Below the pieces are notes generated by a model. That model worked only from the letters and a program-made list of their open reading frames with translations. It did not search any database and had not been told where the DNA came from. Positions 42,362-64,000 of a stretch of DNA of 64,000 nt are shown piece after piece (position 1 is the stretch's first letter; every line of letters begins with the position of its first letter). Source of the stretch: Bacteroidales bacterium (GTDB lineage: Bacteria > Bacteroidota > Bacteroidia > Bacteroidales > GCA-2748055). The stretch spans positions 40,285 through 104,284 of the forward strand of contig JAXGMU010000002.1 of the NCBI GenBank assembly GCA_040768485.1. The letters run 5' to 3'. The position numbers and the translations under genes are program-made.

Positions 42362-42382
42362 TTGGATTATCGTTAGTTTTGA

Positions 42383-42402: not shown

Positions 42403-42408
42403 ACAACC

Positions 42409-43071: not shown

Positions 43072-43085
43072 AATTCCACTTTTGC

Positions 43086-44117: not shown

Positions 44118-44562
44118 AATCCTGGAGGCAACCCTCGTCATACTGATGTCCGTACTGGTCATTGATGTGCTGTGGCAGGTGATCAGCCGTTACCTGCTGA
44201 GTTCTCCCAGCTCCTTCACGGACGAACTGGCAGGATTCCTGCTCATCTGGGTCGGCGTCCTGGGCGCCGCTTATGTGGCAGGGAGGCAGGAACACCTGGC
44301 CATTGATATCCTGGTCCAGCGGTCACCTCCCGGGCGGCAGCGAAAACTGCTTTTTTTCATACGGTCACTGATTTTCCTCTTCGCCCTCTTCGTCATGGTC
44401 ATCGGCGGGATCGTGCTCATGTACACACGCTTTTTGCTGGATGTGAAATCAGCCGCCCTCCAGCTTCCCCTGGGGTATGTCTATATCGTGCTGCCGCTGA
44501 GCGGACTGATCATCATGTTCTATGAAGTGGTGCATCTTATCGAACTAAAAAAATCCAGATAA
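44089..44562 (+). CDS. dctQ: TRAP transporter small permease (DctQ)
   Basis: Four-TM protein of about 157 aa between dctP and dctM. The alternative upstream ATG at 44065 would overlap dctP by 53 nt. Confidence 0.8.
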   Translation: MEKIAYWLNKILEATLVILMSVLVIDVLWQVISRYLLSSPSSFTDELAGFLLIWVGVLGAAYVAGRQEHLAIDILVQRSPPGRQRKLLFFIRSLIFLFALFVMVIGGIVLMYTRFLLDVKSAALQLPLGYVYIVLPLSGLIIMFYEVVHLIELKKSR

Positions 44563-44563
44563 C

Positions 44564-46021: not shown

Positions 46022-46048
46022 AGACAAACCGTTTAATTGAAATGCCTT

Positions 46049-47551
46049 ATGTACTTACTGGGTTATGATGTGGGAAGTTCCTCGGTAAAGGCGAGTCTGG
46101 TGGATGCGGATACGGGACGTTGTGCTGCCACCGCCTTTCATCCCAAGAAGGAGATGAAAATCGATGCCCCGAGGGCCGGTTGGGCGGAACAGGACCCGGA
46201 ACAGTGGTGGTCCAACCTGATCCTGGCCACGACCGACGTGCTGCAGTCAGCCGAAATCGATCCTTCGGCCATCGGAGCCATCGGTATCTCATACCAGATG
46301 CACGGACTGGTCATGGTTGACCGGAAGCACCAGCTGCTGCGGCCGGCCATCATCTGGTGCGACAGCAGGGCGGTCCCCTTCGGGGAACATGCCATGCAGG
46401 CCATCGGCGAGGAAAAATGCCTTGCCCACCTGCTCAACTCACCGGGAAATTTTACCGCTTCGAAGCTGAGCTGGGTGATCATGAATGAACCAGGGACCTA
46501 CGAAAAAGCATACAAAATCATGCTTCCCGGCGATTACATCGCCATGAAGATGACAGGCGAGATCAACACCACCATCTCGGGGCTCTCGGAAGGCATCATG
46601 TGGGATTTCAAAAATAATTCCATCGCGGATTTCCTGCTGGAATATTACGGGATCCACCGGCACCTGATCCCGGAGATCGTCCCAACCTTCTCGGAACAGG
46701 GACGGTTGTCGGCCCGGGCCGCGGATGAGCTGGGACTGGTTCCCGGTATACAGATCTCTTACAGGGCGGGAGACCAGCCGAACAATGCATTTTCGCTGAA
46801 CGTGCTGAATCCGGGTGAGATCGCGGCCACAGCCGGCACTTCGGGAGTGGTATACGGGGTGAGCGACGAGGTGAAATATGATCCCCGGAGCCGGGTAAAC
46901 ACCTTCGCCCATGTGAACCACAGCCAGGAGGTGAACCGCCTGGGTGTCCTGCTGTGCATCAACGGGTCCGGGATCCAGTATTCCTGGCTCAAGCAGAACC
47001 TTTCCGCTCCGGAAATGAATTATCCCGCGCTGAACGACCTCGCCATGGAAGCGCCCGTCGGCTCAGAGGGCCTGATCATGCTTCCTTTCGGCAACGGGGC
47101 GGAACGCATGCTGGGAAATCTGAATGTTGGCGGTACGGTCCGGAACATCAACTTCAATATACATGGATCACCGCACCTGGTCAGGGCTGCCCAGGAAGGG
47201 GTCGTGTTTGCCATGCATTACGGAATACAGATCATGAAGGAGATCGGGATCCATCCAAGGGTGATCAGGGCGGGACTCTCCAACATGTTCCTGAGCCCTG
47301 TTTTCAGGGATACCCTGGCCGGAATCTCAGGCGCCACCATCGAACTTTACGATACGGACGGTTCCGTCGGAGCCGCCAACGGAGCCGGGATCGGTTCGGG
47401 TACATTCAGCTCTTTTGAAGAAGCTTTTGAGAACCTCAACAAGATGATCGTGGTGGAACCCGATGAAAAACACAAGGGCAGTTACCAGGAAGCCTACCAG
47501 CGCTGGTCGGAAGTCCTCCGGGAATGCCTGGAACATCAACTGGAACCATAA
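46049..47551 (+). CDS. xylB: xylulokinase (FGGY family)
   Basis: [24 protein letters not shown] and GDQPNNA motifs. Directly upstream of xylA. Confidence 0.85.
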
Positions 47552-47562
47552 ACTTTAAGAAA

Positions 47563-48894
47563 ATGGAATATTTGAAAGGAAACAAAGAGTACTTCCCGGG
47601 AATCGGGAGGATCAGATTTGAAGGCAGGGAATCGGACAATCCGCTGGCCTTCAAGTTCTATGATGAAAACAAGGTAATTGCCGGCAAGAGCATGAAAGAG
47701 CATCTGCGCTTCGCTGTTGCCTACTGGCACACCTTCTGCGGAACGGGACTGGATCCCTTCGGTCCGGGTACAAAGGATTTTCCCTGGGACAGGGGTAAAA
47801 CCGACCTGGACAGGGCAAGGGACAAGATGGATGCAGCTTTTGAGTTCATCACCAAACTGGGAATGCCCTATTTCTGCTTCCACGATGTGGACCTGGTAGC
47901 CGAAGGGAATTCGGTGCGGGAATACGAATCCAACCTCTCCAGCATGGTGGATTATGCCAGGCAGAAAATGGCCGATTCGGGTGTCAAATTGCTGTGGGGG
48001 ACCGCCAATGTCTTTGGCAACCCGAGGTACATGAACGGGGCGGCCACCAATCCGGATTTCAAAGTACTGCCCTGGGTGGCCACCCAGGTGAAGAACGCCC
48101 TGGACGCCACCATCGCCCTGGGCGGGGAGAACTATGTTTTCTGGGGAGGCCGTGAAGGGTATATGACATTGCTGAACACGCAGATGAAGCGCGAGCAGGA
48201 ACACCTGGCCCAGTTCCTCCACATGGCCAGGGATTATGCCCGCAGCAACGGTTTCAACGGTCCGTTCCTCGTCGAACCCAAACCCATGGAACCCACCAAG
48301 CACCAGTATGACTACGATGCGGCCACGGTAGTGGGGTTCCTGAACAAGTATGGTCTGGAAGGGGATTTCAAACTGAATATCGAGGTGAACCATGCCACCC
48401 TGGCCGGACACACATTTCAACACGAATTGCAGGTGGCGGTGGACAATGATCTCTTCTGCAGCATTGATGCAAACAGGGGGGATTATCAGAACGGATGGGA
48501 CACCGACCAGTTCCCCATTGACCTGTACGAGCTGGTGGAGGCCATGCTGGTGATCCTGGAAGCCGGGGGATTCAAATCCGGAGGCATCAATTTCGATGCA
48601 AAAACCCGCAGGAACAGCACCGACCTGGAAGATATCTTCATCGCGCATATTGCGGGTATGGATGCATTTGCCAGGGCTTTCGAGATCACCCTGGATATCC
48701 TGGAAAATTCACCCTACCGGAAGATGAGGGCTGAGCGGTATGCCTCCTTTGACGCGGGACCGGGTGCCAGGTTCGAGAAAGGGGAGATGTCCCTCGAAGA
48801 GCTGAAGGAACTGGTTACCACGCTGGGCCATCCGGAACAGCTTTCCGGGAAACAGGAGCTATATGAAGCCATCATCAACCAGTACATCCGCTGA
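47563..48894 (+). CDS. xylA: xylose isomerase
   Basis: [41 protein letters not shown] and [10 protein letters not shown] motifs. Confidence 0.95.
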
Positions 48895-50065
48895 TTTTCG
48901 CCGGGAGGAAAGTAGCGGGAGCAGATACAGGATCGGCATCGCGGGACCCGGAAAGGTGGCCCACCTTCATGCAAAGGCGATCGGTGAGATAGGGAATGCT
49001 GTCCTCGCCGGGGTCTGTTCCAGGTCAATGTCGCGGGCCACTACTTTCGCTTCCCTTTACGGCGCCCGGTCCTATAACGATGTGGGAGGGATGGTCCGGA
49101 CAGAGAAGCTGGATCTGGTGATCATCTGTACACCCCATCCCAACCACCTTGAACCGGCCCTGCAGGCCCTGGAGGCCGGAGCACACCTCCTGGTGGAAAA
49201 ACCCCTGGCTTCCACGCTCCAGGATTGCGATGCCATGATCGGAGCAGCCGCGAAGGCGGGCCTGAAACTGGGAGTGGTGAGCCAGCGCCGCTGGTACCCT
49301 CCCACCCTGCGCGTCAAAAAAGCCATTGATGAAGGTAAGATCGGGAAGCCCGTCCTGGGAACGGTCCAGATGCTCGGATGGAGGGATGAAGCATATTACC
49401 GCTCTGATCCGTGGAGGGGTTCCTGGAACATGGAAGGAGGCGGTGTGATGGTCAACCAGGCCCCGCACCAGCTGGACCTGCTGAGCTGGTTGATGGGACC
49501 GGCGGAAGAGTTGTTCGGAACATGGGATAACCTGAACCATCCGTATATCGAAGTGGAGGATACGGCCCTGGCCATTGTCAGGTTCAGGAGCGGCGCCCTG
49601 GGGAACATCATACTTTCCAACTGCCAGAAACCGGGCATCTACGGGAAGATCCACGTTCACGGAGAAAACGGGTCCACGGTGGGTGTGCAGACCGAGGGAG
49701 GTTCCATGTTCATTGCAGGCATGACCCCCATCTCCGAGCCCCCGGTAAACGACCTGTGGACCGTCCCCGGAGAAGAGAAGATGCTGGATGGATTTATCAG
49801 AGAGGACCGGGAGCTGTTCGAACGGATCGACCCGATGGTCCATTTCATCCGGCTGCAGATCCAAGAGTACCTGGATGCGCTGGAAACCGGGCGGGATCCG
49901 CTGGTCACCGGGCAGGAAGGACGCAAAACCGTTGAGCTTTTTACGGCCGTTTACCGGTCGGCAAGGGACCGGGTGCCGGTGAAATTCCCGCTGGAGCCGG
50001 AAACCGGCCGCAGTGACTTTAACGGCCGCCTTTCTGCCGGGGGACAAACATTCAGAACAGCCTGA
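48863..50065 (+). CDS. Gfo/Idh/MocA-family oxidoreductase
   Basis: [12 protein letters not shown] Rossmann start and EKP motif (LLVEKPLA). The only canonical in-frame start (ATG at 48863) overlaps the last 32 nt of xylA. The true start is uncertain. Confidence 0.75.
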
Positions 50066-51419
50066 CCACCCCGTAGACCCCCACCAGAATGATGGCAATG
50101 CAGCTGACCACAAGGGCCACATTGTAAAACCGCCCCGGCCGGAGCATCTGCTCCCTTGTCCCGAACCTGAAGTAAAAACCGGCAATCACCACGATCACCA
50201 GCATGATGAAGGTGGCAATGCCTCCGATGGTGACCATCAGCACCGGGAGCTTCACCACAAGAAAAGCAACGGTCCACAGCAGGGGAAAGACAACGGCCAG
50301 GATCCGGATGGTCCGCAACCGGATCCGCAGGTTGCTGAAGTCAATCCATTTCACCACACCGAAAAGGTCCGAAAAGACCCTGGTGCGGATGGCCAGTGCC
50401 GCAAAGAGTGTGGAAAAAAGGACCACGAAGGAACCTGCCAGGAAAATATTTTTTGCTGCGGGTCCTACCGAGTCTGTGTAGATCCTGGAAAGGGTCTCGA
50501 TCATTTCATACCCTTCCGGGATTTCTCCCCGCCGGTGAAGAATGGCTGCCCCGAGGACAAAAAAAGCCGCGGTGACGACGGTGTAAACGATCATGGAAAG
50601 GAACGCATCCAGGTACATCACGCGGATCCATCCGCTGGCCCGTGCGCTCCACCCCGGATCATTCCGGAGAGACCCGGAAAACCTGGCATACCCTTTCTCA
50701 ATGCACCAGTAGTTGTAGGACAGGATCTCATCCCCGCCCACGCCCGTCAAACCGAATGCGGCCAGTGCAAAGCCCACCGTTCCCGCCGGAAGCCTGAAGG
50801 AGAGCCCACCGCCCAGATCGGCCAGCGTGATGGAAAAGGCGGTTCGCTGGACCATCACAAGCGCCAGGATCGTGAAGAGCACGAAAAAACCCATGAAAAA
50901 CAGGGAGATCTTTTCAACCAGCCCGTAATAGCCGAAGAGCATAATGGTGATAACCACAATGGCTGTCAGGATGGTCCAGCCGCCCACGGATACGGGGGGA
51001 AAGGCCATGTGGAGGATCATGGCAACCCCGCCGATGATCCCGCCCAGCTGCAGCGGCTTGAAAATCCACAACACCAGCCAAGCCCAGACTCCCCAGCTGG
51101 CCCTGCTTTTACCGAAGCGCGGACCCGGAAGCCGGTTCATCATCTGCATGGCCGATGTGCCCCTGATGATGGATTGGCGCCCGAACTCCAGCTGAAGGGT
51201 GATTTTAACCAGACAGCTTACCAGGATGACCCAGAGGGTCACAAAACCCGCCTTGGCGCCCAGGGTGGTTGTGGCGATCAGCTCTCCGGATCCGACCACC
51301 GATGCAGAAAGGATGAATCCGGGCCCCAGAAATCTCACTCTGCCGAAAAAACTGCGTGGGGGATCCAGAATGGCCGATTCATCAACCAGGTAGGGGTCCG
51401 TGGTGATCGCTTTTTTCAT
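50052..51419 (-). CDS. Nramp-fold (LeuT-like) membrane transporter with a non-canonical TM1 motif
   Basis: 455 aa and about 11 TM segments. The N-terminal LGPGFILSASVVGSGELIATT aligns to the Nramp GPGFL...DPGN region, but DPGN is replaced by GSGE. Confidence 0.65.
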   Translation of the reverse strand: MKKAITTDPYLVDESAILDPPRSFFGRVRFLGPGFILSASVVGSGELIATTTLGAKAGFVTLWVILVSCLVKITLQLEFGRQSIIRGTSAMQMMNRLPGPRFGKSRASWGVWAWLVLWIFKPLQLGGIIGGVAMILHMAFPPVSVGGWTILTAIVVITIMLFGYYGLVEKISLFFMGFFVLFTILALVMVQRTAFSITLADLGGGLSFRLPAGTVGFALAAFGLTGVGGDEILSYNYWCIEKGYARFSGSLRNDPGWSARASGWIRVMYLDAFLSMIVYTVVTAAFFVLGAAILHRRGEIPEGYEMIETLSRIYTDSVGPAAKNIFLAGSFVVLFSTLFAALAIRTRVFSDLFGVVKWIDFSNLRIRLRTIRILAVVFPLLWTVAFLVVKLPVLMVTIGGIATFIMLVIVVIAGFYFRFGTREQMLRPGRFYNVALVVSCIAIILVGVYGVVRLF

Positions 51420-51451
51420 CTGTACCGAAGGATGGCCGGCAGAATTCCTGA

Positions 51452-52525
51452 CTACCTCCTGACCCGGGCGTTCCCTTCCCAGATGCTCCAGATCTGTTCT
51501 TCATCGGCCGGCTGTGCATAATCGGTCTCCAGGGTGGTGACCAGCGCACCGCTGGCCCAGCCGAACCGGATCCATTTCCCGGAATCCCATCCCCTCAGAA
51601 TGGCATACAGCATCCCTGCCACAAAACCGTCCCCCCCGCCGATGCGGTCGAACACATAGATGTCCCTTGGCTCCACCACGTGCCAGTTCCCGTTTTCCCA
51701 CAAAATGGCGCCCCACAGGTGCTGGTTTGTACTGACCACTTCACGGAGGGTGGTGGCAAACACGGTAGTGCCGGGAAAGGTTTTGCGTGCCCTGTCGATC
51801 ATCCCTTTGAACCCGTCTATTTTCGTTGAAAGGTCCTTTCCTCCGGCCTCAGGGCCCTCGATGCCCAGGCAGAGCTGAAAATCCTCTTCGTTTCCGATGA
51901 GCACATCTGAAACGGATGCGATCCCGGCAAATATCCCGTGCAGTTCCTCTTCCCTTCCTTTCCAGAAGGAGGCCCTGTAATTCAGATCAAACGAGATCCG
52001 GGTGCCGTATTTCTTCGCCAACCGGGCCAGCTCCAGGCAGAACTGTCCGGTTTCCGGTGAAAGCGCTGCGATGAGTCCCGACATGTGCACGATCTGTGCC
52101 CCTTCACTACCGAAAATACGGTCAAGGTCAAAATCCTTCACGTTCAGGGTCCTCCCCACCTCCCCCGCCCGGTCGTTCTGCACCCGCGGGCCCCGCGAGC
52201 CGTAACCCCGGTCGGCGATGTTGATCTGGTGCCTGTATCCCCAGGGGCCGCCCTGGTCAACTTCCGCTCCCTCGAAATCCATGTGCCGTGCGGCCAGGTT
52301 GTCCCTGATCATCCTGGCGATGGGACTCCCCTTTACAAATGTGGTAAGCACCTTCACCGGCAGTCCCAGGTAGGAGGAAACACTGCCCACGTTGGACTCG
52401 GCACTGGTGACCTGCATTTTGAACATGTCGCTTGTGTGGACCGGCTGCCCGTTCACGGGCGTGATCCGGATCCCCATGCTGGTGGGGATTACCATTGCAT
52501 ATTTTGCATCCTTTCGTAATTCCAT
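51452..52525 (-). CDS. PfkB-family sugar kinase, divergent KdgK paralogue
   Basis: DLNYR, GNEEDF and the ATP-site DRIGGGDGFVAG motifs. The N-terminal substrate lid differs from the upstream paralogue. Confidence 0.75.
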   Translation of the reverse strand: MELRKDAKYAMVIPTSMGIRITPVNGQPVHTSDMFKMQVTSAESNVGSVSSYLGLPVKVLTTFVKGSPIARMIRDNLAARHMDFEGAEVDQGGPWGYRHQINIADRGYGSRGPRVQNDRAGEVGRTLNVKDFDLDRIFGSEGAQIVHMSGLIAALSPETGQFCLELARLAKKYGTRISFDLNYRASFWKGREEELHGIFAGIASVSDVLIGNEEDFQLCLGIEGPEAGGKDLSTKIDGFKGMIDRARKTFPGTTVFATTLREVVSTNQHLWGAILWENGNWHVVEPRDIYVFDRIGGGDGFVAGMLYAILRGWDSGKWIRFGWASGALVTTLETDYAQPADEEQIWSIWEGNARVRR

Positions 52526-52581
52526 TTTGCCTGAATTTATTGATGTTTAACTTCAATTCCTCTGTGATCCGGGAAACGGGG

Positions 52582-53682
52582 TCAGCGGACAACCCTGGCG
52601 GATCCGCCGCCTTTTACCTTTTCCACTTCTGCCAGTGTGGCCATGCTGGTATCGCCCGGTGTGGTCATGGCCAGCGCCCCGTGGGCAGCACCATATTCAA
52701 CCGCCTCCCGGGGATCTCCGGTGGCCATCATCCCGTAGATAAGTCCCGAGGCGAAGCTGTCCCCTCCTCCCACCCGGTCGAGGATCTCCAGATCCGGGCG
52801 GTGGGTGGCCTCGTAAAACTCCCCGTCATAGTAACAGATACCTCCCCAGGAATTGACGGTTGCCGTCTTCACGGTGCGGAGGGTGGTGGCGATCATCCTG
52901 AAATTGGGGAATGTTTTGATCACATTCAGGATCATTTTTTTGTAACTGTCGGTTTCAAGATTGGAGAGGTTCTGATCCACTCCTTCCACCTCGAATCCCA
53001 GGCCTGCCGTAAAATCTTCTTCATTGCCGATCATCACGTCCACATAGGGTGCCAGTCTCCGGTTCACCTCCCTGGCTTTTTCGATCCCCCCGATGGCTTT
53101 CCAGAGGGAGGGCCTGTAGTTCAGATCATAGGAGATCACCGTGCCGTGCTTCCTGGCGGAGACCATGGCCTCTTCGATCACTTCGGGGGTACTCTCCGAG
53201 AGGGCAGCAAAAATGCCCCCCGTATGGAACCACTGCGATCCGAGCGTACCGAATATTTCATCCCAGGGGATATCTCCTTTCTTCAGCTGACTGGCTGCAG
53301 TGTTGCCCCTGTCCGACACACCCAGGGCGCCCCTGATCCCGTACCCCCTTTCGGTAAAGTTCAATCCGTTCCTGACGGTCCGCCCGATCCCGTCGTATGG
53401 GACCCATTTAATATGATCCACCCCCACACCCCCCTGCATGATGAAATCCTCCACCAGCCGGCCCACCGCGTTATCTGCAAATGCGGTGACCACCGCTGTG
53501 GGCAGGCCGAAACATTTCCGGAGCCCCCGGGATACATTGTATTCCCCGCCGCCTTCCCAGACCCGGAACTGTCGGGCCGAACTGATCCGGTTCTCCCCGG
53601 GATCCAGGCGGAGCATGACTTCGCCGAGTGATACGCAGGCATACCTGCAGTCTTCGAGATGTTTGATTTCGAGCTTTGGCAT
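52582..53682 (-). CDS. kdgK: 2-dehydro-3-deoxygluconokinase (PfkB family)
   Basis: SLGEVMLRL, GGGEYNV, DLNYRPSLW and DRVGGGDSFASG motifs. The start is set at the ATG at 53682. Confidence 0.8.
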   Translation of the reverse strand: MPKLEIKHLEDCRYACVSLGEVMLRLDPGENRISSARQFRVWEGGGEYNVSRGLRKCFGLPTAVVTAFADNAVGRLVEDFIMQGGVGVDHIKWVPYDGIGRTVRNGLNFTERGYGIRGALGVSDRGNTAASQLKKGDIPWDEIFGTLGSQWFHTGGIFAALSESTPEVIEEAMVSARKHGTVISYDLNYRPSLWKAIGGIEKAREVNRRLAPYVDVMIGNEEDFTAGLGFEVEGVDQNLSNLETDSYKKMILNVIKTFPNFRMIATTLRTVKTATVNSWGGICYYDGEFYEATHRPDLEILDRVGGGDSFASGLIYGMMATGDPREAVEYGAAHGALAMTTPGDTSMATLAEVEKVKGGGSARVVR

Positions 53683-53711
53683 TGAACAGGATTTTTTACG
53701 TTTCAGAAACC

Positions 53712-53719
53712 CAAATTTA
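53712..53719 (-). promoter_or_regulatory. candidate -7 promoter box (TAAATTTG on the minus strand) for the kdgK pair
   Basis: The reverse complement of CAAATTTA gives a TAnnTTTG match, about 30 nt upstream of the ATG at 53682. Confidence 0.35.
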
Positions 53720-53775
53720 CAATTCCCATCCCACAGTTCCATAGATATCCTTCGATATCGTCCTTATTAAATCTC

Positions 53776-55065: not shown

Positions 55066-56535
55066 CTAATCCAACATCGGATTGTCATAGAAGATCTTCT
55101 GCTTCATTTCAAAGTCATACAGGGTCACCTCCCGCAGGAGGTAATAGGATTCCCAGTAATTCTCGAGGGAGCTGATATAATCCCGTTTGGCTGCTTCCCG
55201 TTCGGCCAGTGAAATGTTCAGGTCGGTGATGCTGATCTCCCCGTTCTGGAACTTCTTCAAAGCGATCAGATACCCCTCCTCGGCCACCTTGTCGGCAGCC
55301 TCGGCCGTCTCGATCTGGTCCTTGATCAGGTTGAACTGCTCGACCATCACCACCACCCTTCTTTCGAAATCCTGCCGGTCCTGCTCCACATCGTAGATGA
55401 CCAGTTCCCGCTGCGACTCCGCCAATCGCACCTGCGATTCGCTCCTTCCCCAGTCCAGGATCGGGATGCTCAGGGAAAGGCTGACGTTCTGCTGCTGGTC
55501 AGGGTTTTCATACACCCCTCCCAGCATGTCGGCACTGTTGGACACTCCGTAACTCATGTTCAGGGTGGCACTCAGGCCGCTGTTCCTTTTTGCCTGGGTG
55601 AGGTCCCGCTCGGCCTGGATCAGCCTCCGTTCGAATTCGGGTGTTTCTTTCCGGTTCTCCAGGGCCTCTTCCAGTGCCTTCACCGGATCCACTTTGAACA
55701 GGAACATATCCAGCGGGATGATGAGCTCGATCTGCTGGTTCTGGTCCAGCCCGATGTACCGCTTCAGTTCGTAATCGGCGTTTTTCAAATCGATCCGCGC
55801 ATTGTTAAGTGCCTTCTGGGCATTGAAAACCGACAGCTGGATCCTGGCAAAATCATTCTCCGATATGGTTCCCAGCTCCTGTCGCACACTGGCGATCCGC
55901 AGGTTATCCCTGCTGTTCCTCAGATTGCTTTCGGCCAGGGCGTAATTGGTCTGGATCCTCAGGTACCTGAAGAACCTGGATGTGGCCTCGTATGAAATCT
56001 CCTCGATGGACTCAATGAAATTTTTCTGGGCCTCTTCATACACCAGGGGTTCGGTCATCCTGGCCCATTTCATCCAGTTATAGGCAAAAAGCGGCTGGGT
56101 GATCCCGACACTCACCGGGTAACCCGAAAAACCCGTGGTGCTGTTGTTGAAGTCCTGCAACCTCACAAGCCCTGAAGCGGCGTACACATATGCACCCATA
56201 ACAGGAATGGGCTGACTCAGGGCAACCTGTGCACTGGTTTCCAACTGGGTTACCTTGTTGAACACGATGCTCCCGTCGGGTTGTACAATGGGTTTGGTCT
56301 GGTTCTCAAAATCCGGGAGATCGCCCGACAGGGTGAGCTGGGGCCTGAACCGGGTCTGGTGGTTCTTCCACCGCCAGTAGTAATTCACATCACGGTTCTG
56401 CACATACTTTACCGCAGACGACTGATTGATGGCCAGATCCACCACGTTTCTCAGGCTCAGGGACACAAGGGAGTCCTGTGCGAACAGTCCCGCAGGCAGC
56501 GACAGCAGGACTGCATACAGGGCCCGTTTCCCCAT
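55066..56535 (-). CDS. TolC-family outer membrane efflux protein
   Basis: Signal peptide ending FAQDS. Two-repeat OEP layout (LSLRNVVDLAINQS..., coiled alpha-helical repeats). The start is set at the ATG at 56535. Confidence 0.85.
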   Translation of the reverse strand: MGKRALYAVLLSLPAGLFAQDSLVSLSLRNVVDLAINQSSAVKYVQNRDVNYYWRWKNHQTRFRPQLTLSGDLPDFENQTKPIVQPDGSIVFNKVTQLETSAQVALSQPIPVMGAYVYAASGLVRLQDFNNSTTGFSGYPVSVGITQPLFAYNWMKWARMTEPLVYEEAQKNFIESIEEISYEATSRFFRYLRIQTNYALAESNLRNSRDNLRIASVRQELGTISENDFARIQLSVFNAQKALNNARIDLKNADYELKRYIGLDQNQQIELIIPLDMFLFKVDPVKALEEALENRKETPEFERRLIQAERDLTQAKRNSGLSATLNMSYGVSNSADMLGGVYENPDQQQNVSLSLSIPILDWGRSESQVRLAESQRELVIYDVEQDRQDFERRVVVMVEQFNLIKDQIETAEAADKVAEEGYLIALKKFQNGEISITDLNISLAEREAAKRDYISSLENYWESYYLLREVTLYDFEMKQKIFYDNPMLD

Positions 56536-56545
56536 CAGCCTCCAT

Positions 56546-57757
56546 TTAAAAGTCCAGTTCCATGATTTCCTCCGGGGAAGAGATCGCTGACAGGACCACC
56601 TGTTCCCCTTCCCGGAGTCCTTCCACAATTTCCACATATTCTTCAGTTTTCAGTCCGGTTTTTATCTGCCGCAATTCCGCCTTCCCGTTTCTCAGCACAT
56701 AGACCGAATGGTCATTCCCCCGTCCGATGACCGGACCGTTGGGGATCCTCAGAACACTGTCCCTTTCAGCTTTCACGATTTCCAGGTCCACGTTCAGGTT
56801 CGGCCTCAGTTTGTAGTGGTTGCTCTCCCGGAGGTGGACGTCAAACTCGATCATCCGGTCCCGGATCACCGGGCTCACGGTACCCACTACCCCGGGAAGC
56901 TTGTCGGTATCGATGTTCACATATACCCGGGTCCCCGTTTTCACATCCTCGGAAAAATCATCCTCCACGGTTCCATGCACCTTAAAATTCGTCAGATCGG
57001 ACATCTCCACGAGAAGCCGGTCCGAGTTCACTTTCTCGCCCACTTTTCCCCTGATGGATAATATGATCCCGGCAGAGGGAGCCCGAATGATCATTTTGCT
57101 TAAAGCTTCTTCCCTGGCTGCCAGTTCCTTCTCCTGCATTTCGATCTGAAGGCGGAGTCCCTGCTCGTCTGCTTCCAGCTGCTGCAGTCTGATGGAATTC
57201 TTCTCTTTCAGCATGATCAGGTCCTTTTCGGCCAGTTCCAGTTCCTGTTTGGTCTTCTCGAAGCGGGCAGGAGAGATCCCCCCTACTTCGAGCAGCTGTT
57301 CCTGGTCGGCCAGCTCGGATTTAAGCGAAGCGATCGCCAGGTTCTTCACCTGCACGTTGTAATCCAGGTCAACCTTGACGCTCCTGGCGTTCAGCTGGTT
57401 TTTGTGCAGCGCGTTCTGCTTGACCTCCAACTGGTCCCGGATATTGTCTATCTCGTTCTGGATGGGGGTCGGGTCCAGGATGATGATCGGCTCGCCGGCA
57501 TCCACGTGACTTCCCACCTCCTTCAGGATCTCCTTGATGATGCTCGATGCAGGGCTGAGGATAATCACCTCGCTCTGGGGTTCCACCACTCCCTGACCGG
57601 GGAAGGACCTGATGACCCGCCCGATCTCCGCTTCCCCGATCCGCACCTCCTCGTTCTGTGATGATTTGGAGGCAAAGGGGACAAAAACGATCACCACAAC
57701 GGCAGCCAGCAGCAACAGCGGTATGCCGATGTACATCCCTTTACGAAAACCTGTCAT
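56546..57757 (-). CDS. membrane fusion protein / periplasmic adaptor (HlyD-MacA type), copy 2
   Basis: N-terminal TM anchor, lipoyl-like hairpin halves (VEPQSEVIILSP...AGEPIIILD ... IIRAPSAGII), a long coiled coil, and beta-barrel and membrane-proximal domains. The tracked TTG start at 57778 is possible. Confidence 0.85.
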   Translation of the reverse strand: MTGFRKGMYIGIPLLLLAAVVVIVFVPFASKSSQNEEVRIGEAEIGRVIRSFPGQGVVEPQSEVIILSPASSIIKEILKEVGSHVDAGEPIIILDPTPIQNEIDNIRDQLEVKQNALHKNQLNARSVKVDLDYNVQVKNLAIASLKSELADQEQLLEVGGISPARFEKTKQELELAEKDLIMLKEKNSIRLQQLEADEQGLRLQIEMQEKELAAREEALSKMIIRAPSAGIILSIRGKVGEKVNSDRLLVEMSDLTNFKVHGTVEDDFSEDVKTGTRVYVNIDTDKLPGVVGTVSPVIRDRMIEFDVHLRESNHYKLRPNLNVDLEIVKAERDSVLRIPNGPVIGRGNDHSVYVLRNGKAELRQIKTGLKTEEYVEIVEGLREGEQVVLSAISSPEEIMELDF

Positions 57758-57833
57758 GTCTGTTCTGGTATTTTTCAATCTGCTTCATTGCAAAACTTCT
57801 GTGAAACTGATCACGCTAAAATAGTAAACAAAT

Positions 57834-60524
57834 TTAAGACATTCTTCTGCGGTTCGGAACGAAAAGCAGAAAACCCGGGATGATCAGTCCCCCGCCCACA
57901 AATACGATCCACCAGGGCAGAAGCGGCGGGATTCCCAGGTGGGTGGTGATCCCCAGGATCTTGGACAAACCGCCGGGAAGGACAAGCAACTCGTTGTTCA
58001 AGGCCGTCAGGCTTTCCTCCAGTCCGAATATGAACAGGAGCGATCCCGCAATCAGCAACTGGAGCCCCAGTGCCATCAGGACCATTCCCGCAGAAGCCGA
58101 CCCGTTCCTCCGCATCCATCTCCGCCCTGCGATCACATATATCTGGAATTTCCTGAACAGCAGCATCACAAAAAGGGAGAGGAAAAGCATCCTGAAGAGA
58201 TCCGAAACCCAGAAGAGGTACCAGAACACCTGCGGTCCCCTGACAGCCACCACCCCCGTGACCAGCATCATGACCAGGATCTTCGGGGCCATCACTGAAA
58301 CCAGTATCTTCGGAAAGTTCCTCCCCGAGCCGAACACAAGCGACAGCACAACGGCAACCAGCAATCCCAGGCCGCCGATACACAGGGGAAAAAGCAGTGA
58401 AGCAAACGAGGAGAAAGACACCACCGCCAGCAGGTAAAGCAGGAGCAATATCAATGCCACCTGGCCGGTACCGTGGTAGGCGGTCAGGTCGCTGATGGAA
58501 CGCGGGCGGAACAGGGCATCGAAAAAGAGGGTGGCGGCAAACTTCCGGTGCCCCCTGTCCCTGATGAAACGCGGGATCCCCATGATCAGGAGGAACAGCG
58601 CAACGGCCAGGAATATCCTGGCACCGGCAACTGAGAGAGGGGTTCTCCCGGCAATCTTCATTCCGGTATCAACCTCTTCGAAGTCCATCCCCAGGGTATT
58701 CAGATCCCCGGCATATTTCTCCCGGTGAAAGGACCTGACTGCGCTGAACTGTCCCATGGCCAGTTTGTAAGCAGTCTCCGCTTGCGGATCTCCCTTTTCG
58801 ATCCACCGGTAATAATTCATGAAAAACTGCCTGTAATAGGCCAGCAGGCGGAGCAGTTCGATCTCATATTCGGCAGCCCCGATCAGTTGCTCGTATTCAT
58901 TGCGGTGGCCGGACACCCGATCCTTCGCCTCCAGCAGGAGATCTTTCATGACCACCGCCTCCCTCACCGCCCGGAAACCCTCGTCGATCACCTCCCCCAT
59001 TTGGTCACGGGTGATGAAGTAGATGTTGCTGAAGACGGCGCTGGAAGCACCCAGGATATCCCACTCGAAGATCCAGAGCATGGGAGGGGGCTCAAGCCCC
59101 AGCGCCCGCACATCGTACCTTGCAAAATCACTGATATAAAGACCCCTGCTTATAATTCCGGGGGACATGCGGAATGCTTCCGTCAGATTGGCCACCAGGA
59201 GGGGATCATCTCCGAAATAATCCCTGATCCACCTGATCGCAATGGTGTCCGCATGCTCGTAAGGATCCAGGAGCAGCTGTCCCGTGGCATAGGCATTGAT
59301 TTCATTGATCACATTGAAACCGTAAAACGGATAGATGATCATGGGGCCGGCCCTCAGCGGACCTCCGTATTGTGTCCATACCCAGGCACCTTCCATGCGG
59401 GGATTCTTTTCCACGAACGTCTGAATGGCTTTCTGATGCACGGGCGCCATGTAGTTGGGCAGCGAACCGAATCCCTCGAATTCCCGTTTTACCTGGAATT
59501 CTGCGATCCGGCGGTGTTCCCCCTGCAGCAGTGTGGGATTCAGCTCAAGCCAGCTGTAGAAATCCCCGGCGCAGTACTTGGTGGAAACCACCAGACGGTC
59601 GGATTGTACCTCCCCCAGGACGCGTTTGTATGTTTCGGGATTCGTATGCATATCCCCGATCTCACCCACTCCCACCGACCAGGTGCGGAAGATGATGTTC
59701 CTGTCATATTTTTCGGCAGCAGCCAGGAAGGCCTCCAGCATCAACCGGACCGCTTCGCCGGTCCTCACGCTGAGCTCACTTGTGTAATCCCAGCCCTGCG
59801 TGTTATAGATGGAGCCGGCCTCTCCGATGCGGAGGATGATCCCTTCGAGGTGGGGGAATTTTTCAAAAACCTCCTCCGCGGCCTTCCCGTAGACCTGCCA
59901 GAACGCCGGGTTTTCCGTATCCACCGGGCCGAATGTGCGGTTGAAATACTCCGACAGGGGCGGGGTCAGTGCCACCATATCGGTCCACAGGTAGCTTTTC
60001 ATTCCGTGGTCCGCCGCCGCCTGCATCAATTCGGCAAAGCGCCTGCTCAGCGTATCATGCCGGTCCCTGTAAACACTTTTCGTTCCGTATACCTGCCTTC
60101 CGTTGTCCACCAGGTCAAAATTGACACATTCGAGGAACCATGGCATGGCGACGGCATTGTATCCGTACGCGCCCATCTGCGCGGTGAAGCGATCGAACTT
60201 TTCATACTCCTGCCTGAATTGGGAAGTATCCGTGAAGGGGGGTGCCACCTGCCATACCTTTTCGAAGAAACGCTGGTGATGCGAGTAATCGGCTCCCCAC
60301 CCTGCCGTATCGGGAACAATTCCCACCCCTCCCATGTCCACGATCCGCAGCGGCAGCAGGAGGGAGTCTGCGCCGGGCATGGAGGTCACCTGCCCGGGAT
60401 CGGGCAGGTTCTTTTCCCGGTAGCTGATCCCCAGGACACCGGCGACCTGCTTTGCCGCAAAATACCCTGCGGCGAGACCCGCCCCCAGGATGAACAATGT
60501 CCCCAGAAAATTTCTCGCGGTCAC
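57834..60524 (-). CDS. 896-aa fusion: N-terminal signal anchor, GH67-like (beta/alpha)8 glycosidase-like domain, C-terminal 7-TM domain
   Basis: GTG start overlapping the upstream stop (GTGA). Successive motifs EGIILRIGEAG, IIFRTWSVG, VVSTKYCAGDF, AEFQVKREFEGFG, GAWVWTQYGG and IRWIRDYFGDD parallel the GH67 alpha-glucuronidase catalytic-domain motifs as recalled. Residues about 630-890 form roughly 7 hydrophobic helices. No Walker A. Confidence 0.7.
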   Translation of the reverse strand: MTARNFLGTLFILGAGLAAGYFAAKQVAGVLGISYREKNLPDPGQVTSMPGADSLLLPLRIVDMGGVGIVPDTAGWGADYSHHQRFFEKVWQVAPPFTDTSQFRQEYEKFDRFTAQMGAYGYNAVAMPWFLECVNFDLVDNGRQVYGTKSVYRDRHDTLSRRFAELMQAAADHGMKSYLWTDMVALTPPLSEYFNRTFGPVDTENPAFWQVYGKAAEEVFEKFPHLEGIILRIGEAGSIYNTQGWDYTSELSVRTGEAVRLMLEAFLAAAEKYDRNIIFRTWSVGVGEIGDMHTNPETYKRVLGEVQSDRLVVSTKYCAGDFYSWLELNPTLLQGEHRRIAEFQVKREFEGFGSLPNYMAPVHQKAIQTFVEKNPRMEGAWVWTQYGGPLRAGPMIIYPFYGFNVINEINAYATGQLLLDPYEHADTIAIRWIRDYFGDDPLLVANLTEAFRMSPGIISRGLYISDFARYDVRALGLEPPPMLWIFEWDILGASSAVFSNIYFITRDQMGEVIDEGFRAVREAVVMKDLLLEAKDRVSGHRNEYEQLIGAAEYEIELLRLLAYYRQFFMNYYRWIEKGDPQAETAYKLAMGQFSAVRSFHREKYAGDLNTLGMDFEEVDTGMKIAGRTPLSVAGARIFLAVALFLLIMGIPRFIRDRGHRKFAATLFFDALFRPRSISDLTAYHGTGQVALILLLLYLLAVVSFSSFASLLFPLCIGGLGLLVAVVLSLVFGSGRNFPKILVSVMAPKILVMMLVTGVVAVRGPQVFWYLFWVSDLFRMLFLSLFVMLLFRKFQIYVIAGRRWMRRNGSASAGMVLMALGLQLLIAGSLLFIFGLEESLTALNNELLVLPGGLSKILGITTHLGIPPLLPWWIVFVGGGLIIPGFLLFVPNRRRMS

Positions 60525-61831
60525 ATTTCCACCTGTTTCGTAATGGCTGATTTAATTGGATTCAGCACACGCTGAAGCATGCGCAGCTTATCGGTCAGGA
60601 TCTCGGCCTGACCCTGCATGTTCTGACTGAAAGGGATATCGATTTCGTAGAAGGTTCGCAGTCCCCTGGGAAGCTCCACTTCCACGGTGTAAAAATCGTC
60701 ATCGGGCACTTTTGAGATATTGCTTACATATCCCTTCACCATGCCGTATTCCAGGTGCGGGAAATTATCGAACTGGATATTCACCTGGTGCCCCACACGG
60801 ACCTTGCCCGCCCCTTCCACGGGCAGGCGGATCTTTCCCACCATGGAACCCGCTTCAGCGGGGATGATGGTGAGCACCTTATCCCCGGCCTTCACATTCT
60901 GGTTCTCGCTCCAGAAACGGGTAAAGGTCACCACCCCGCTGACCGGCGCTTTCAGCAAATAGTTCTGCTCCCAGGATGCGATGGAAGCTTTCAGGTTATT
61001 GAATGATTCCTCGAGTGTGTTCACGGTCTGTGACATCTGGTCGCGCTGTTGCAGTTCCAGATCCACGATCTGCTGCTCTGTCTGCGCGATGCTGATGTTG
61101 TTCTCCGCCATCAGGCTCACGATCTCCTGCCACTGGTTGCGCTCCTGCAGCATGGCGGAACGGGATTTTTCCAGGTCGGACTGGGACAGCACACCCTGTT
61201 CGTAGAGGGTGGCATCACGGTTGAACTGTCTCAGCGCCAGATTATAGGCTTCTTCCTGGATCCGGGCCCTCTCGGTAAGGCTCCTGGTGTAGGCCTGTTT
61301 CTTGTCCAGCTCGGATCGAAGCAACTCGATCCTACGCTGGTGGTAATCGATGCGTTTGAACTCCAGGTAATCCCGGTACGCCTTGAGAAAGATGGAGTAG
61401 TCCGACTGGATGGTCCCCAGCCTGGCATTTTTCAGCTCCGGCACTTCCCCGGTCACCTGCTCCACGGGAACACTGTCCAGGAACGCCAGTCCCTTTTTCA
61501 GCTGCATCACATCTTCGAATGCGGCCGGGTTTTCGATCATGGCCAGCACCGTCCCGGCGGATACCAGGTCGTTGTCGCTTATGAACAATTTTGTGATCTT
61601 CCCGTTGCTGCGGGCTTCAAGATCTGCAGGAGGATTGACGGAGGTGACCACGATGCTGGCCCGTTTGATGTCCGGATACCGGAAGATCCAGCTTCCGAAA
61701 ATGAGCAGGGCGAGCAGGAACAGGAAAAGAATGATCCCGTTGCGTGTCAGCCAGCCGGGAACCCTGCCGAGCATGTCCTCGATTTCCTGTGGCTGAAGCT
61801 CCACTTTTCCGGATGACCTTTCTGATGGCAT
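60521..61831 (-). CDS. HlyD-family secretion adaptor (type usually paired with peptide-exporting ABC transporters), copy 1
   Basis: Cytoplasmic N-terminus, one TM helix (GIILFLFLLALLIFGSWIF), lipoyl halves (ARSNGKITKLFISDNDLVSAGTVLAMIE ... LKAPVSGVV), and a coiled coil of about 150 aa. Confidence 0.85.
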   Translation of the reverse strand: MPSERSSGKVELQPQEIEDMLGRVPGWLTRNGIILFLFLLALLIFGSWIFRYPDIKRASIVVTSVNPPADLEARSNGKITKLFISDNDLVSAGTVLAMIENPAAFEDVMQLKKGLAFLDSVPVEQVTGEVPELKNARLGTIQSDYSIFLKAYRDYLEFKRIDYHQRRIELLRSELDKKQAYTRSLTERARIQEEAYNLALRQFNRDATLYEQGVLSQSDLEKSRSAMLQERNQWQEIVSLMAENNISIAQTEQQIVDLELQQRDQMSQTVNTLEESFNNLKASIASWEQNYLLKAPVSGVVTFTRFWSENQNVKAGDKVLTIIPAEAGSMVGKIRLPVEGAGKVRVGHQVNIQFDNFPHLEYGMVKGYVSNISKVPDDDFYTVEVELPRGLRTFYEIDIPFSQNMQGQAEILTDKLRMLQRVLNPIKSAITKQVEM

Positions 61832-61970
61832 GGCTTTGTGTATTAATTAAGGCTAAGATAACCCATCCATCTCAAAAAGTAAATGATCCCCGCGGGAGAT
61901 TGTTCACAATCGGGCCGGAAGACCCTCGTTTCCTGCATGAAGGAATGCGATTCAATAGATGTGAGACCGT

Positions 61971-63458
61971 TCAGGGGCACGGCCGGAACCTCATGTTATC
62001 CACGAACAGGTCCTGGAAGGAAGGATCCGATTCCAGGTTCACATGGGAGGTCCGCTCCAGGATGGCATCCGTCAGGGAAAGCTCCGAGAAAAGGAACATT
62101 TTCGCACCCATCAAGGCCGTGTTCCCCAGTTTGCGAAACGCAACCGGGGTAAAACCCAGCATGCCCGTGGCCGTCACGGAATCCATGCTGAGATAGCTCC
62201 CGAAAGCGCCTGCGATATAAACGGTGGCAATGTCGCCGGGTCCGATGGAGAGTTTCTTCATCAGGATCTCCACACCGGTGGCAATGGCTGCCTTTGCCAG
62301 CTGGAATTCCTGGATGTCTTTTTGTGTCAGGACCACCGGCCCGGCCAGGGTCACCTGTTCCCCAGCTCCCGCCAGCTGGCCGTATTCATCCAGCCACCCC
62401 CGCCCGAGCAGGACCGCCACCGCATCGATCAGTCCGCTTCCGCAGATGCCCCGCGGGGATCCGTTCCCGATCACTTTGACGCTCCAGCCTGCCGGACCGG
62501 GCTCCACGGAGGAAATGGCACCCGTGGTGGCCAGCATGCCCATGGAGATCCTGGCTCCTTCGAAAGCGGGACCGGCGGCAGTGGATGCGCACAAAAGCTC
62601 CCTGCGGTTCCCCAGCACAATCTCTCCGTTGGTCCCCAGGTCAATGAGCAGGCTGTATTCCTCCCCCTCGCAGATCCCTGTGGCCTGAATGCCGGCCAGG
62701 ATGTCGCTACCCACGAAACTGCCGATGGAAGGATAAAAGACCACTTCCCGGGTCGATAGGTCCCATCCCAGTTCAACGGGCAGAAACCGTGCTGCTCCCA
62801 GAAGGGGCGATTCAAAGGGATAAAATGAAAGCGGCTTCAGATCAAATCCGCAGAAGAAGTGTTGCATGACCGTGTTCCCCACGAGAATGATCCTTTCAGG
62901 GTCCTCTTTTCTTCCCGCCGTCATCCGGCCGATCATTCCGCCGATCTTTTTCCGGATCATCCCCGTCATTTCTGGCGCGTTGCCGGAAAGGGCTGCTTCC
63001 AGCCTGGAAATCAAATCACTGCCGTACTTCTGCTGGGGATTGAGGCCCTTTTCCATGGCCAGGATCCGCCCCTGCTGCAGATCCAGCAGCTGGGCCACCA
63101 GGGTGGTCGTGCCCAGGTCCACCGCCACACCCACTCCCTTCCGCGGTACGAATTCAAACGGCGTCTCATCCGCCTGGATAAGGGTTTCGTACTGATCCAC
63201 CCCGATGACCATGTCAGTGTGACACAGGCTCAGGCAGGCCAGGCGCCATTCCCTGCCCAGTCCCAGTTCAGCCAGCCGCTTCCTGTGAAAGTCATCCGTG
63301 TCGATCGCTCCCCTGATCAGCCTGACCCTGCATTTGCCGCAGATCCCCTTCCCGCCGCAGGGGAACTCAACCCCGTATTCGTGGAGCGCATCTTTCAGCG
63401 GGGAACCCTTTCTGACCCGGATGGTCTTTCCCAGCGGTTCCAGCCCGATGGTCACCAT
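61971..63458 (-). CDS. RACo-type corrinoid activation protein (2Fe-2S ferredoxin domain + ASKHA/DUF4445 ATPase)
   Basis: N-terminal plant-type ferredoxin motif CGGKGICGKCRV...C. The C-terminal body has DLGTTT, DLGTNGE and AGAFG actin-fold phosphate motifs. The ATG at 63458 is preferred over the tracked TTG at 63464. Confidence 0.8.
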   Translation of the reverse strand: MVTIGLEPLGKTIRVRKGSPLKDALHEYGVEFPCGGKGICGKCRVRLIRGAIDTDDFHRKRLAELGLGREWRLACLSLCHTDMVIGVDQYETLIQADETPFEFVPRKGVGVAVDLGTTTLVAQLLDLQQGRILAMEKGLNPQQKYGSDLISRLEAALSGNAPEMTGMIRKKIGGMIGRMTAGRKEDPERIILVGNTVMQHFFCGFDLKPLSFYPFESPLLGAARFLPVELGWDLSTREVVFYPSIGSFVGSDILAGIQATGICEGEEYSLLIDLGTNGEIVLGNRRELLCASTAAGPAFEGARISMGMLATTGAISSVEPGPAGWSVKVIGNGSPRGICGSGLIDAVAVLLGRGWLDEYGQLAGAGEQVTLAGPVVLTQKDIQEFQLAKAAIATGVEILMKKLSIGPGDIATVYIAGAFGSYLSMDSVTATGMLGFTPVAFRKLGNTALMGAKMFLFSELSLTDAILERTSHVNLESDPSFQDLFVDNMRFRPCP

Positions 63459-63467
63459 TTCCAATCC

Positions 63468-64000
63468 CTAAGCAGCAAATTGTTTCAGGTATTCCACGGC
63501 CCCGCGCGGATTCGGGGAATAGAAATCCGCTCCTATTTTTTTGCAGAAATCCTCGTTAAGCGGGGCTCCTCCCACCAGCACGGTGGTGTCGGAATGGGCA
63601 GCCTTGATCTCCCTGACGATCTCCTCCATGTTGGTCATGGTGGTGGTCAGCAAAGCCGAAAGTCCTACCACCGCACCGGGATTTTCCGCGATGGTCCTGT
63701 TAAAGGTGTCTTCGTTGACGTCCACGCCCAGATCGATGATGGACCATCCGCCGCCTTCGACCATCATGGCCACCAGGTTCTTTCCGATGTCATGCAGGTC
63801 TCCCTTCACCGTGCCGATGATGAACGTGCCTTTGGTCTTCACATCACCGGACTGGAAATATGGTTTCAGATGAACCATCGCGGCTTTCATCGCTTTCGCA
63901 GCCATCAGCATCTGGGGAACGAAGATCTTGTTCTCGGAGAATTTCTGCCCCACCCGGTCCATGGCGGGCACGAGGGCTTCCGTGAGCAGGTCGGTGGGCT
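63468..64000 (-). CDS. corrinoid (cobalamin-binding) methyltransferase-system protein, 5'-truncated by the window edge
   Basis: B12-binding DxHxxG motif (GDLHDIGKN), SxL (GLSALLTTT) and GG (VLVGGAPL). The reading frame stays open upstream of the tracked GTG to position 64000 (…PTDLLTEALVPAMDRVG, a helical cap domain). Confidence 0.85.
   Translation of the reverse strand, partial: PTDLLTEALVPAMDRVGQKFSENKIFVPQMLMAAKAMKAAMVHLKPYFQSGDVKTKGTFIIGTVKGDLHDIGKNLVAMMVEGGGWSIIDLGVDVNEDTFNRTIAENPGAVVGLSALLTTTMTNMEEIVREIKAAHSDTTVLVGGAPLNEDFCKKIGADFYSPNPRGAVEYLKQFAA

Follow-up and report, generated by a model that had tools for sequence, protein, structure and literature searches.

The 64,000-nucleotide stretch of Bacteroidales bacterium contig JAXGMU010000002.1 analysed here (assembly GCA_040768485.1, positions 40,285–104,284; the window) contains an open reading frame (ORF), referred to as X, whose product appears to join a glycoside-hydrolase-like domain to a bundle of membrane helices. 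The locus raises the question of whether such a protein is real, whether its soluble part is an enzyme and what a polytopic membrane domain would contribute to it. The analysis shows that X represents a real, widely conserved and unstudied family of inner-membrane proteins. The soluble part of X is a remote relative of glycoside hydrolase (GH) family 67 and not a strict member of it. From the conserved residues we propose, with moderate confidence, that X is a working enzyme on the periplasmic side of the membrane: an inverting exo-glycosidase whose substrate carries an alpha-linked uronic acid similar to glucuronic or galacturonic acid. The parts of X on which the argument draws are as follows.

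57834–60524, minus strand: ORF X, 896 residues, GTG start, TAA stop; inner-membrane protein with eight transmembrane (TM) helices and a GH67-like periplasmic domain
60453–60509, minus strand: helix TM0, residues 6–24 (AlphaFold helix 2–31), from hydropathy, the model and conservation
59325–60227, minus strand: GH67-like (beta/alpha)8 barrel, residues ~100–400, from the strand/helix alternation in the AlphaFold model, Foldseek and hhalign
58713–59318, minus strand: helical domain, residues 403–604, equivalent to the GH67 C-terminal domain and holding the WIRDYFGDD motif, from profile, Pfam and AlphaFold
57858–58643, minus strand: seven-helix membrane module, residues 628–889, from hydropathy and AlphaFold, with no Pfam match
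57927–58019, minus strand: periplasmic TM6–TM7 loop, residues 836–866, better conserved than any other element of the membrane module

An earlier sequence-only reading had described X as a covalent fusion of a GH67-type domain with seven membrane helices, and had allowed that the fusion might be an error of sequencing or assembly. Such an artefact, or a false gene fusion, is excluded: a protein identical to X was found in independent NCBI and Logan assemblies, there are hundreds of full-length homologues, some of them in complete genomes of cultured Actinomycetota, and the AlphaFold model of the single chain is confident. Nothing was found in favour of an artefact, and the fusion is conserved in full-length relatives. 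A search for homologues of X returned 959 matches, the great majority of those listed being full length (~880–1070 residues), and a scan of one genome per species placed relatives in at least 475 species-level genomes. These belong to at least five phyla (Bacteroidota, Actinomycetota, Chloroflexota, Myxococcota and KSB1), with monoderm Actinomycetota among them, and the cultured carriers include Microbacterium, Micromonospora, Dactylosporangium and Hyalangium. The source-named database entries inspected are all 'hypothetical', except for the automatic UniProt name 'GH67 C-terminal domain-containing protein'. A full-text literature search returned no paper on the family and no described counterpart of its architecture. 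An antisense ORF of 616 codons (58725–60575, plus strand) covers most of X; nothing marks it as a gene, and the coding strand probably gives rise to it as a shadow ORF.

The relationship of the soluble part to GH67 is faint in the sequence of X itself. A search of Pfam and NCBIfam with X alone gave one marginal match, to GH67C (E-value of 0.035, 14.1 bits against a cut-off of 27); X alone matched neither GH67M nor GH67N in Pfam, and a phmmer search of the PDB with X alone gave no match. Because single-sequence searches yielded one marginal match only, profiles were needed. An alignment of 36 family sequences (A1) was used as a profile, for assessing conservation and for structure prediction with AlphaFold2. 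Searched against the PDB sequences, the A1 profile matched GH67 structures only, with E-values of 1e-8 for Geobacillus stearothermophilus AguA (1k9d/1mqp) and 1e-5 for Cellvibrio japonicus GlcA67A (1gqi/1h41). These matches span residues 310–458 of the query, residues 402–459 being paired with residues 452–509 of AguA. When the 36 members were scanned individually (E ≤ 0.01), GH67C was matched by 31/36, GH67M by 10/36 and GH67N by 1/36, with best E-values of 2.8e-8 for GH67C and 5.7e-10 for GH67M, and no Pfam family of substance besides these three domains appeared. The Pfam check proposed in the sequence-only reading thus finds GH67 domains in the relatives, while X itself stays below the GH67C cut-off. 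A second alignment (A3) was made from true GH67 fragments that were retrieved with a 157-residue GH67 piece and that reach the acid motif; hhalign aligned A1 with it over 264 columns (97.7% probability, E-value of 1.5e-12).

The same reading had rested its assignment on six motifs, all of which are present in the translation of X in the order given there, and the alignments recover essentially the same pairings with GH67.

Residues 227–237: EGIILRIGEAG
Residues 277–285: IIFRTWSVG
Residues 312–322: VVSTKYCAGDF
Residues 341–353: AEFQVKREFEGFG
Residues 379–388: GAWVWTQYGG
Residues 432–440: WIRDYFGDD

The AlphaFold2 model of X [mean predicted local distance difference test (pLDDT) score of 84, predicted template modelling (pTM) score of 0.82] has an eight-fold alternation of strands and helices at residues 124–383, followed by long helices at residues 403–604. 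Comparison of this model with the PDB using Foldseek placed GH67 structures in all of the top 11 positions (E-values of 3.5e-12 to 2.3e-10, TM-scores normalized to the target of 0.46–0.49), a GH67-type fold. The runners-up were GH138 (E-value of 5.5e-10, TM-scores of 0.43–0.50) and then GH20 and GH84 (E-values of 1e-5 to 1e-4); no GH138 chain was among the matches when the PDB sequences were searched with X or its profile. The GH67-type domain claimed for X is thus borne out by Pfam matches in its relatives, the profile search of the PDB, hhalign and Foldseek. X does not reach the curated Pfam gathering scores that define GH67 (PF03648, PF07488 and PF07477) and has two of the three GH67 domains: the barrel and the helical domain are present and the N-domain is absent, with only ~75 residues lying between TM0 and the barrel. 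It is probable that the X family is a new glycoside hydrolase family within the GH67/GH138 fold group.

Relatives of 1030–1070 residues, from Actinomycetota, Chloroflexota and Myxococcota-type metagenome-assembled genomes, carry an extra segment of ~140 residues between TM0 and the barrel. Its signature (...EAF.l....L.I.G.s..G..YG.Y.LAD) is typical of GH67/GH20-type N-domains, and a GH67/GH20b-type N-domain can be placed at residues ~60–200 of P0098, P0102, P0110, P0112, P0119 and P0120. Since the long relatives keep an N-domain-like segment, the ancestral layout was TM0, N-domain, barrel, helical domain and seven TM helices, and the window's clade has shed the GH67-type N-domain. Two stretches of the soluble part, residues 387–399 (~59327–59365; GGPLRAGP..YPF) and residues 477–494 (~59042–59095; LEPPPMLWIFEWD), are highly conserved yet modelled with pLDDT below 50. 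They may be mobile, or they may be loops that contact a partner or the membrane.

The catalytic residues, left unverified in the sequence-only reading, could be located from these alignments. GH67 enzymes are inverting: one glutamate serves as the general acid (Glu292 in GlcA67A, whose numbering is used for GH67 throughout; Glu285 in AguA) and the pair Asp365/Glu393 activates a water molecule. The GH67 mutants named in PDB titles, E292A (1h41), E285N (1k9e) and E386Q (1mqr), support these assignments. The corresponding residues of X, all seven of which are invariant in A1, are the following.

59562–59564, minus strand: D321, in exact register with GH67 D365 (general-base pair)
59481–59483, minus strand: E348, in exact register with GH67 E393 (general-base pair)
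Residue 342: E342, in exact register with GH67 E387
59577–59579, minus strand: K316, in exact register with GH67 K360
59685–59687, minus strand: R280, aligned with GH67 R325, exactly in HMMER and one column off in hhalign
59829–59831, minus strand: R232, aligned with GH67 K288
59820–59822, minus strand: E235 (in RIGEAG), one column before GH67 E292, with which A236 is aligned

The base pair is thus in place, and the acid candidate lies one column away from its expected position; we regard E235 as the probable general acid of X. Further invariant acidic residues (E132, D182 and E350) lie at predicted strand ends. In GlcA67A, Lys288, Arg325 and Lys360 are the residues that we take to hold the uronate carboxylate, an assignment for which the literature search gave no confirmation, and R232, R280 and K316 are the putative carboxylate ligands of X. 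The alignment of these three basic residues with the presumed carboxylate positions favours an alpha-uronic acid as the substrate.

The imperfect alignment of the acid residue and the very low scores against the GH67 models could also be explained if X were a non-catalytic protein that binds or senses carbohydrate, with the barrel binding a glycan and the membrane module relaying a signal or acting as a scaffold. We consider this very unlikely. The invariance of D321, E348, E342, K316, R280 and E235 across 36 sequences from several phyla exceeds what binding usually needs, and X has no cytoplasmic output domain, its cytoplasmic loops being short and poorly conserved.

The membrane part of X contains the seven C-terminal helices that had been described earlier (residues ~628–648, 686–704, 711–731, 737–762, 775–804, 808–833 and 869–888). 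The N-terminal helix adds to them. In the TM0 region G20, L31 and I33 are nearly invariant, K38 is invariant and the pLDDT is 88–95; TM0 is probably an uncleaved anchor. As TM0 is conserved and confidently modelled, X is better termed an eight-TM protein with the glycoside hydrolase domain in its first periplasmic loop. Clusters of Lys and Arg residues occur at residues 652–685 and 791–808 and at the C-terminus. By the positive-inside rule the N-terminus, these two loops and the C-terminus are predicted to be cytoplasmic and residues 25–627 to be periplasmic.

No relative of the membrane module was found outside the family. Residues 612–896 of X have no match in Pfam or NCBIfam. When a profile of 19 membrane-module sequences (A2) was run against 1.84 billion cluster representatives, it retrieved only 284 proteins, all of which belong to the X family; in the long ones the module lies C-terminal to a GH67-like domain. 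The stand-alone seven-helix homologues that the sequence-only reading had suggested looking for did not appear in this search, which returned instead a few barrel-less derivatives and contig-end fragments of the family. Residues 612–896 modelled alone with AlphaFold gave a pLDDT of 88.5 and a pTM of 0.85, and a Foldseek search of the PDB with this model found no relative (best E-value of 0.48, TM-scores ≤ 0.25). A relationship to seven-helix receptors, rhodopsins or transporters was considered and rejected, the matches to G-protein-coupled receptors and rhodopsins being noise (E ≥ 0.48). By these searches the module is specific to the X family, barrel-less forms included, and we take it to be a new membrane domain.

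Conserved residues in the module concentrate on the periplasmic side. One conserved stretch lies at the TM4/TM5 turn [R762-G-P..FWY.FWTS..F(R)]. The TM6–TM7 loop has the pattern E836..LT..N843..L.LPGGLS854.ILGITTH862L.IP and surpasses most of the enzyme domain in conservation. Within the TM helices there are no conserved charged residues, and the cytoplasmic loops are short and variable; both properties speak against X as an ion-coupled transporter or as a signalling protein.

Relatives that have lost the barrel bear on what the conserved loop is for. Short matches to A2 are mostly contig-end fragments, and several are true shortened proteins. P0122, P0131, P0137 and P0154 (399–493 residues) retain TM0 and, after an in-frame deletion whose end-point differs from protein to protein, continue with the last part of the helical domain and the seven helices. 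The window's clade has undergone at least four independent barrel deletions. P0146, P0213, P0215 and P0223 also lack the barrel and are more distantly related. Identities to X, with the loop taken as residues 836–866 and 18 of its residues counted as key, are as follows.

Ten full-length proteins from several phyla: TM helices 24–64%, loop 68–90%, 17–18 of 18 key residues
Four barrel-less clade-mates: TM helices 49–56%, loop 36–68%, 5–14 of 18 key residues
Four distant barrel-less forms: TM helices 19–24%, loop 32–55%, 8–14 of 18 key residues

The constraint on the loop is seen only where the barrel is present, which suggests that loop and barrel are one functional unit. From this pattern we infer that the loop may serve as an active-site lid, as a substrate path or as an obligatory docking surface. 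The intact ORFs of 400–490 codons favour, short of proof, barrel-less forms that function over remnants on the way to loss.

In the mechanism that we propose, TM0 and the C-terminal seven-helix bundle would form one eight-TM inner-membrane module, and the loop of ~600 residues between TM0 and TM1 would be a periplasmic, diverged GH67-type catalytic unit made up of the barrel and the helical domain. The TM6–TM7 loop and the barrel would act together on a substrate that the protein binds, or receives, at the membrane surface. As loop and barrel read as one unit, a membrane-anchored or membrane-proximal glycoconjugate would suit X better than a freely diffusing oligosaccharide, and we infer a membrane-associated or membrane-delivered glycoconjugate as the substrate. 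Several observations weigh against the proposed uronidase. X is only ~13% identical to GH67; the barrel fold is shared by GH138, GH20 and GH84, so that the case for uronate specificity depends on a small number of aligned basic residues. The placement of E235 comes from two ungapped, low-confidence alignment stretches and is one column off E292; hhalign likewise shifts R280 by one column against R325, although HMMER keeps the two in register. The loop-decay argument is drawn from eight barrel-less sequences (n = 8), some of which may be decaying pseudogenes. Finally, the neighbours of X differ by clade, being a penicillin-amidase-like gene, a GH10 gene or nothing.

In the window, X is the second of four genes on the minus strand, in the order HlyD adaptor, X, MFP adaptor and TolC-like gene.

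60521–61831, minus strand: HlyD/type-I-secretion-like periplasmic adaptor, 436 residues, with an N-terminal TM helix; directly upstream of X
60521–60524, minus strand: GTGA overlap, in which the stop of the HlyD-type adaptor gene shares 4 nt with the GTG start of X
56546–57778, minus strand: second periplasmic adaptor (MFP; RND_mfp/MacA-YknX-like), 410 residues, after a gap of 55 nt from X
55066–56637, minus strand: TolC-like outer-membrane factor (OMF), true start probably at 56535, with the signal peptide MGKRALYAVLLSLPAGLFAQ

The GTG start overlapping the adaptor gene, as reported in the sequence-only reading, is confirmed, and the overlap suggests translational coupling of X to the HlyD-type adaptor gene. 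Neighbours were compared by clustering the ORFs of 87 loci. In the clade in which X is ≥53% identical, HlyD at −1 and MFP at +1 were found in 13/13 loci, the ATGTGA junction is kept in 12/13 and the OMF lies at +2 (or +4) in 12/13, the contig of the thirteenth ending before that position. The outer flanks of these loci vary. No ABC, RND, MFS or PET pump gene was found among the genes of the window's operon with Pfam and NCBIfam. Between the RACo gene upstream and the HlyD gene there is a terminator-like hairpin at 61886–61900 (minus strand; ATCTCCCGCGGGGAT, then a T-rich tail), which fits the four genes forming a separate transcription unit. A scan for promoters and terminators gave nothing above background, the sigma-70 model being unsuitable for Bacteroidota.

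An operon of two adaptors and an outer-membrane factor with no pump gene could mean that X itself is the missing part: the eight-TM module would be a translocase that takes a glycoconjugate through the inner membrane or out of it, and X the inner-membrane component of a new kind of tripartite system, in which the glycoside hydrolase domain trims or releases this glycoconjugate for the adaptors and the TolC-like channel to carry out. The apparent translational coupling to HlyD fits this explanation, as does the large periplasmic domain between its first two TM helices, which recalls, by analogy only, the MacB- and RND-type partners of adaptors. It also fits that the barrel-less P0137 occupies the same slot (L093, 309–1721), between HlyD and MFP genes 73% and 78% identical to those of the window and with the ATGTGA overlap kept, and that the monoderm relatives would need no conduit. 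The distribution of X speaks against it. HlyD genes 70–72% identical to that of the window sit in HlyD–MFP–OMF triads at the syntenic site that lack X (L091, 8001–12046; L092, 8001–12148). These X-less triads nest inside the X-bearing clade when the HlyD proteins are arranged in a neighbour-joining tree, which indicates that X was lost in L091 and L092 and that the triad is independent of X. Outside the clade, where X is ~40% identical, there are no adjacent adaptors or TolC, diderms included. The TM helices without conserved charges, the unconserved cytoplasmic loops, the lack of an energy-coupling module and the lack of fold similarity between the module and any transporter in the PDB all point the same way. 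The idea of X as the pump of a tripartite system was downgraded once the nested X-less triads had been found, and we now regard it as quite unlikely.

For the Bacteroidales-type clade we propose instead that X would be an accessory processing enzyme for the cargo of a two-adaptor/TolC conduit. It would be an accessory and not the engine because the triad persists without X and because X lacks such partners in other phyla, including the monoderm Actinomycetota. We conclude that the basic function of X is autonomous from the triad.

A universal gene neighbour was sought as a clue to function and rejected, since the clustering of the 87 loci gave clade-specific partners only. In another Bacteroidota clade, at seven loci, a gene of the penicillin-amidase family (Ntn-hydrolase) of ~700 residues lies at +1 on the same strand (L004, 10728–12830; L005, 10811–12919; also L020, L025, L026, L027 and L041), and in three of the seven a GH10 gene lies divergently upstream at −1. 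The penicillin-amidase-family gene may be another functional partner of X that is particular to one clade. At the actinobacterial loci the neighbours (MFS, MsrA, subtilisin and others) seem to reflect normal synteny, and nothing informative was found beside X in the Hyalangium locus or in the long-form loci L088–L090.

The sequence-only reading had also seen glucuronate and xylose catabolic genes nearby as making an alpha-glucuronidase-like chemistry plausible. The genes are present:

42379–53742: sugar-catabolic stretch with eda (KDPG/KHG aldolase), TRAP DctP/DctM, xylB (xylulokinase), xylA (xylose isomerase), a GFO/IDH/MocA oxidoreductase, an Nramp-like transporter and two KDG-kinase-like PfkB genes

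They belong to other transcription units than X and are not conserved beside its relatives, and so add little to the claim about chemistry. As support for a xylan-derived substrate the xylose and KDG neighbours were given little weight on the same ground.

A plainer explanation is that X is a nutrient-scavenging alpha-glucuronidase acting on soluble aldouronic acids or uronate-capped oligosaccharides, with the membrane module as its anchor and its place among efflux adaptors a historical accident. It would account for the GH67-like fold and residues and for the loss of X where the triad is kept. Glycan-catabolic genes also lie near some relatives, as with the GH10 gene in the three loci above, rhamnosidase, KduI, KduD and GH88 near P0078, and xylA, xylB and the KDG-kinase genes in the window. 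This explanation nevertheless seems doubtful to us: to anchor the enzyme, a lipid or just one helix would be enough, yet a seven-TM bundle is conserved in at least five phyla, with a periplasmic loop that is better conserved than most of the enzyme domain and decays once the barrel is lost. In addition, X was not within a SusC/SusD-type locus in any locus examined, and the 4-nt overlap with HlyD is maintained in 12/13 loci of the clade.

The proposed uronidase at the membrane face admits a more specific version, in which the eight-TM module would bind a lipid-anchored glycoconjugate and present it to a GH67-like site completed by the TM6–TM7 loop, the product being passed to the pump-less two-adaptor/TolC conduit. 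The candidate substrates would then be an alpha-glucuronosyl or galacturonosyl diacylglycerol or ceramide, or a polyprenyl-linked uronate-containing glycan. We put this forward as a speculative and rather unlikely scheme. Were it true, X would establish a new family, that of intramembrane-assisted glycosidases with envelope glycolipids as substrates.

Of the genes directly upstream of the HlyD gene (61971–63971, minus strand), one encodes a corrinoid (B12-binding) protein and another a RACo-type reductive activator. This pair is syntenic in relatives (L007, 1–6621; L091, 1–7979) with genes for an AraC-type regulator, FTHFS, MTHFR, a pterin-binding methyltransferase and URO-D-family methyltransferases. 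These upstream genes look like a corrinoid-dependent methyl-transfer (O-demethylase-like) module in a genome of Bacteroidales type; a tie to 4-O-methyl-glucuronate would be pure speculation.

Glycoside hydrolases are among the best-catalogued enzymes, yet a family of this breadth was missed by annotation. The catalytic part is unsurprising; what stands out is the membrane module, its coupling to the enzyme, the breadth of the distribution and the pump-less adaptor operon. An alpha-uronidase-type centre appears to be joined to a module for which neither Pfam nor the PDB holds a relative, and the conservation suggests that the two parts work as one unit. The architecture points to glycosidase chemistry on or at the membrane, a little-explored area. 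The operon of two adaptors and a TolC-like gene poses a second puzzle, that of its energy source and its cargo. The family is directly testable in cultivable hosts.

Among known systems, GH67 is the best match to X both by sequence profile and by fold. As in AguA and GlcA67A, the barrel is followed by a helical domain, and the residues at the positions of D365, E393, E387, K360 and R325 are invariant in the X family. The long relatives retain an N-domain-like segment that X itself lacks. X differs from GH67 in its low identity, its scores below the Pfam gathering thresholds and the shift of the acid Glu by one column, and in being an integral membrane protein with eight TM helices; to our knowledge, the characterized GH67 enzymes are soluble or lipid-anchored. 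GH138, represented by the BP0997/BT0997-type alpha-galacturonidase (6hzf), is the second-best structural match. GH138 acts on an alpha-linked uronic acid in rhamnogalacturonan II. It differs from X in showing no sequence relationship to it in searches of the PDB sequences, in being soluble and in having other accessory domains.

The MacB/FtsX-type ABC permeases and the RND pumps resemble X, by analogy only, in having a large periplasmic domain after the first TM helix, and the gene for X lies between adaptor genes and near a TolC-like gene. X has no ATPase and no RND, MFS or ABC signature or fold similarity, and the triad exists without it. Measured against tripartite efflux and type I transporters, X is co-encoded with adaptors and an outer-membrane factor, belongs to no energized transporter family and does not co-occur obligately with these partners. 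Enzymes of the LtaS/EptA/PbgA type and of the GT-C class differ from X in fold and chemistry, and the lipid-anchored substrates on which they act are hypothetical for X. The likeness, again by analogy only, lies in the combination of a membrane module with a periplasmic catalytic domain and, in X, in a conserved periplasm-facing membrane loop that appears to cooperate with that domain.

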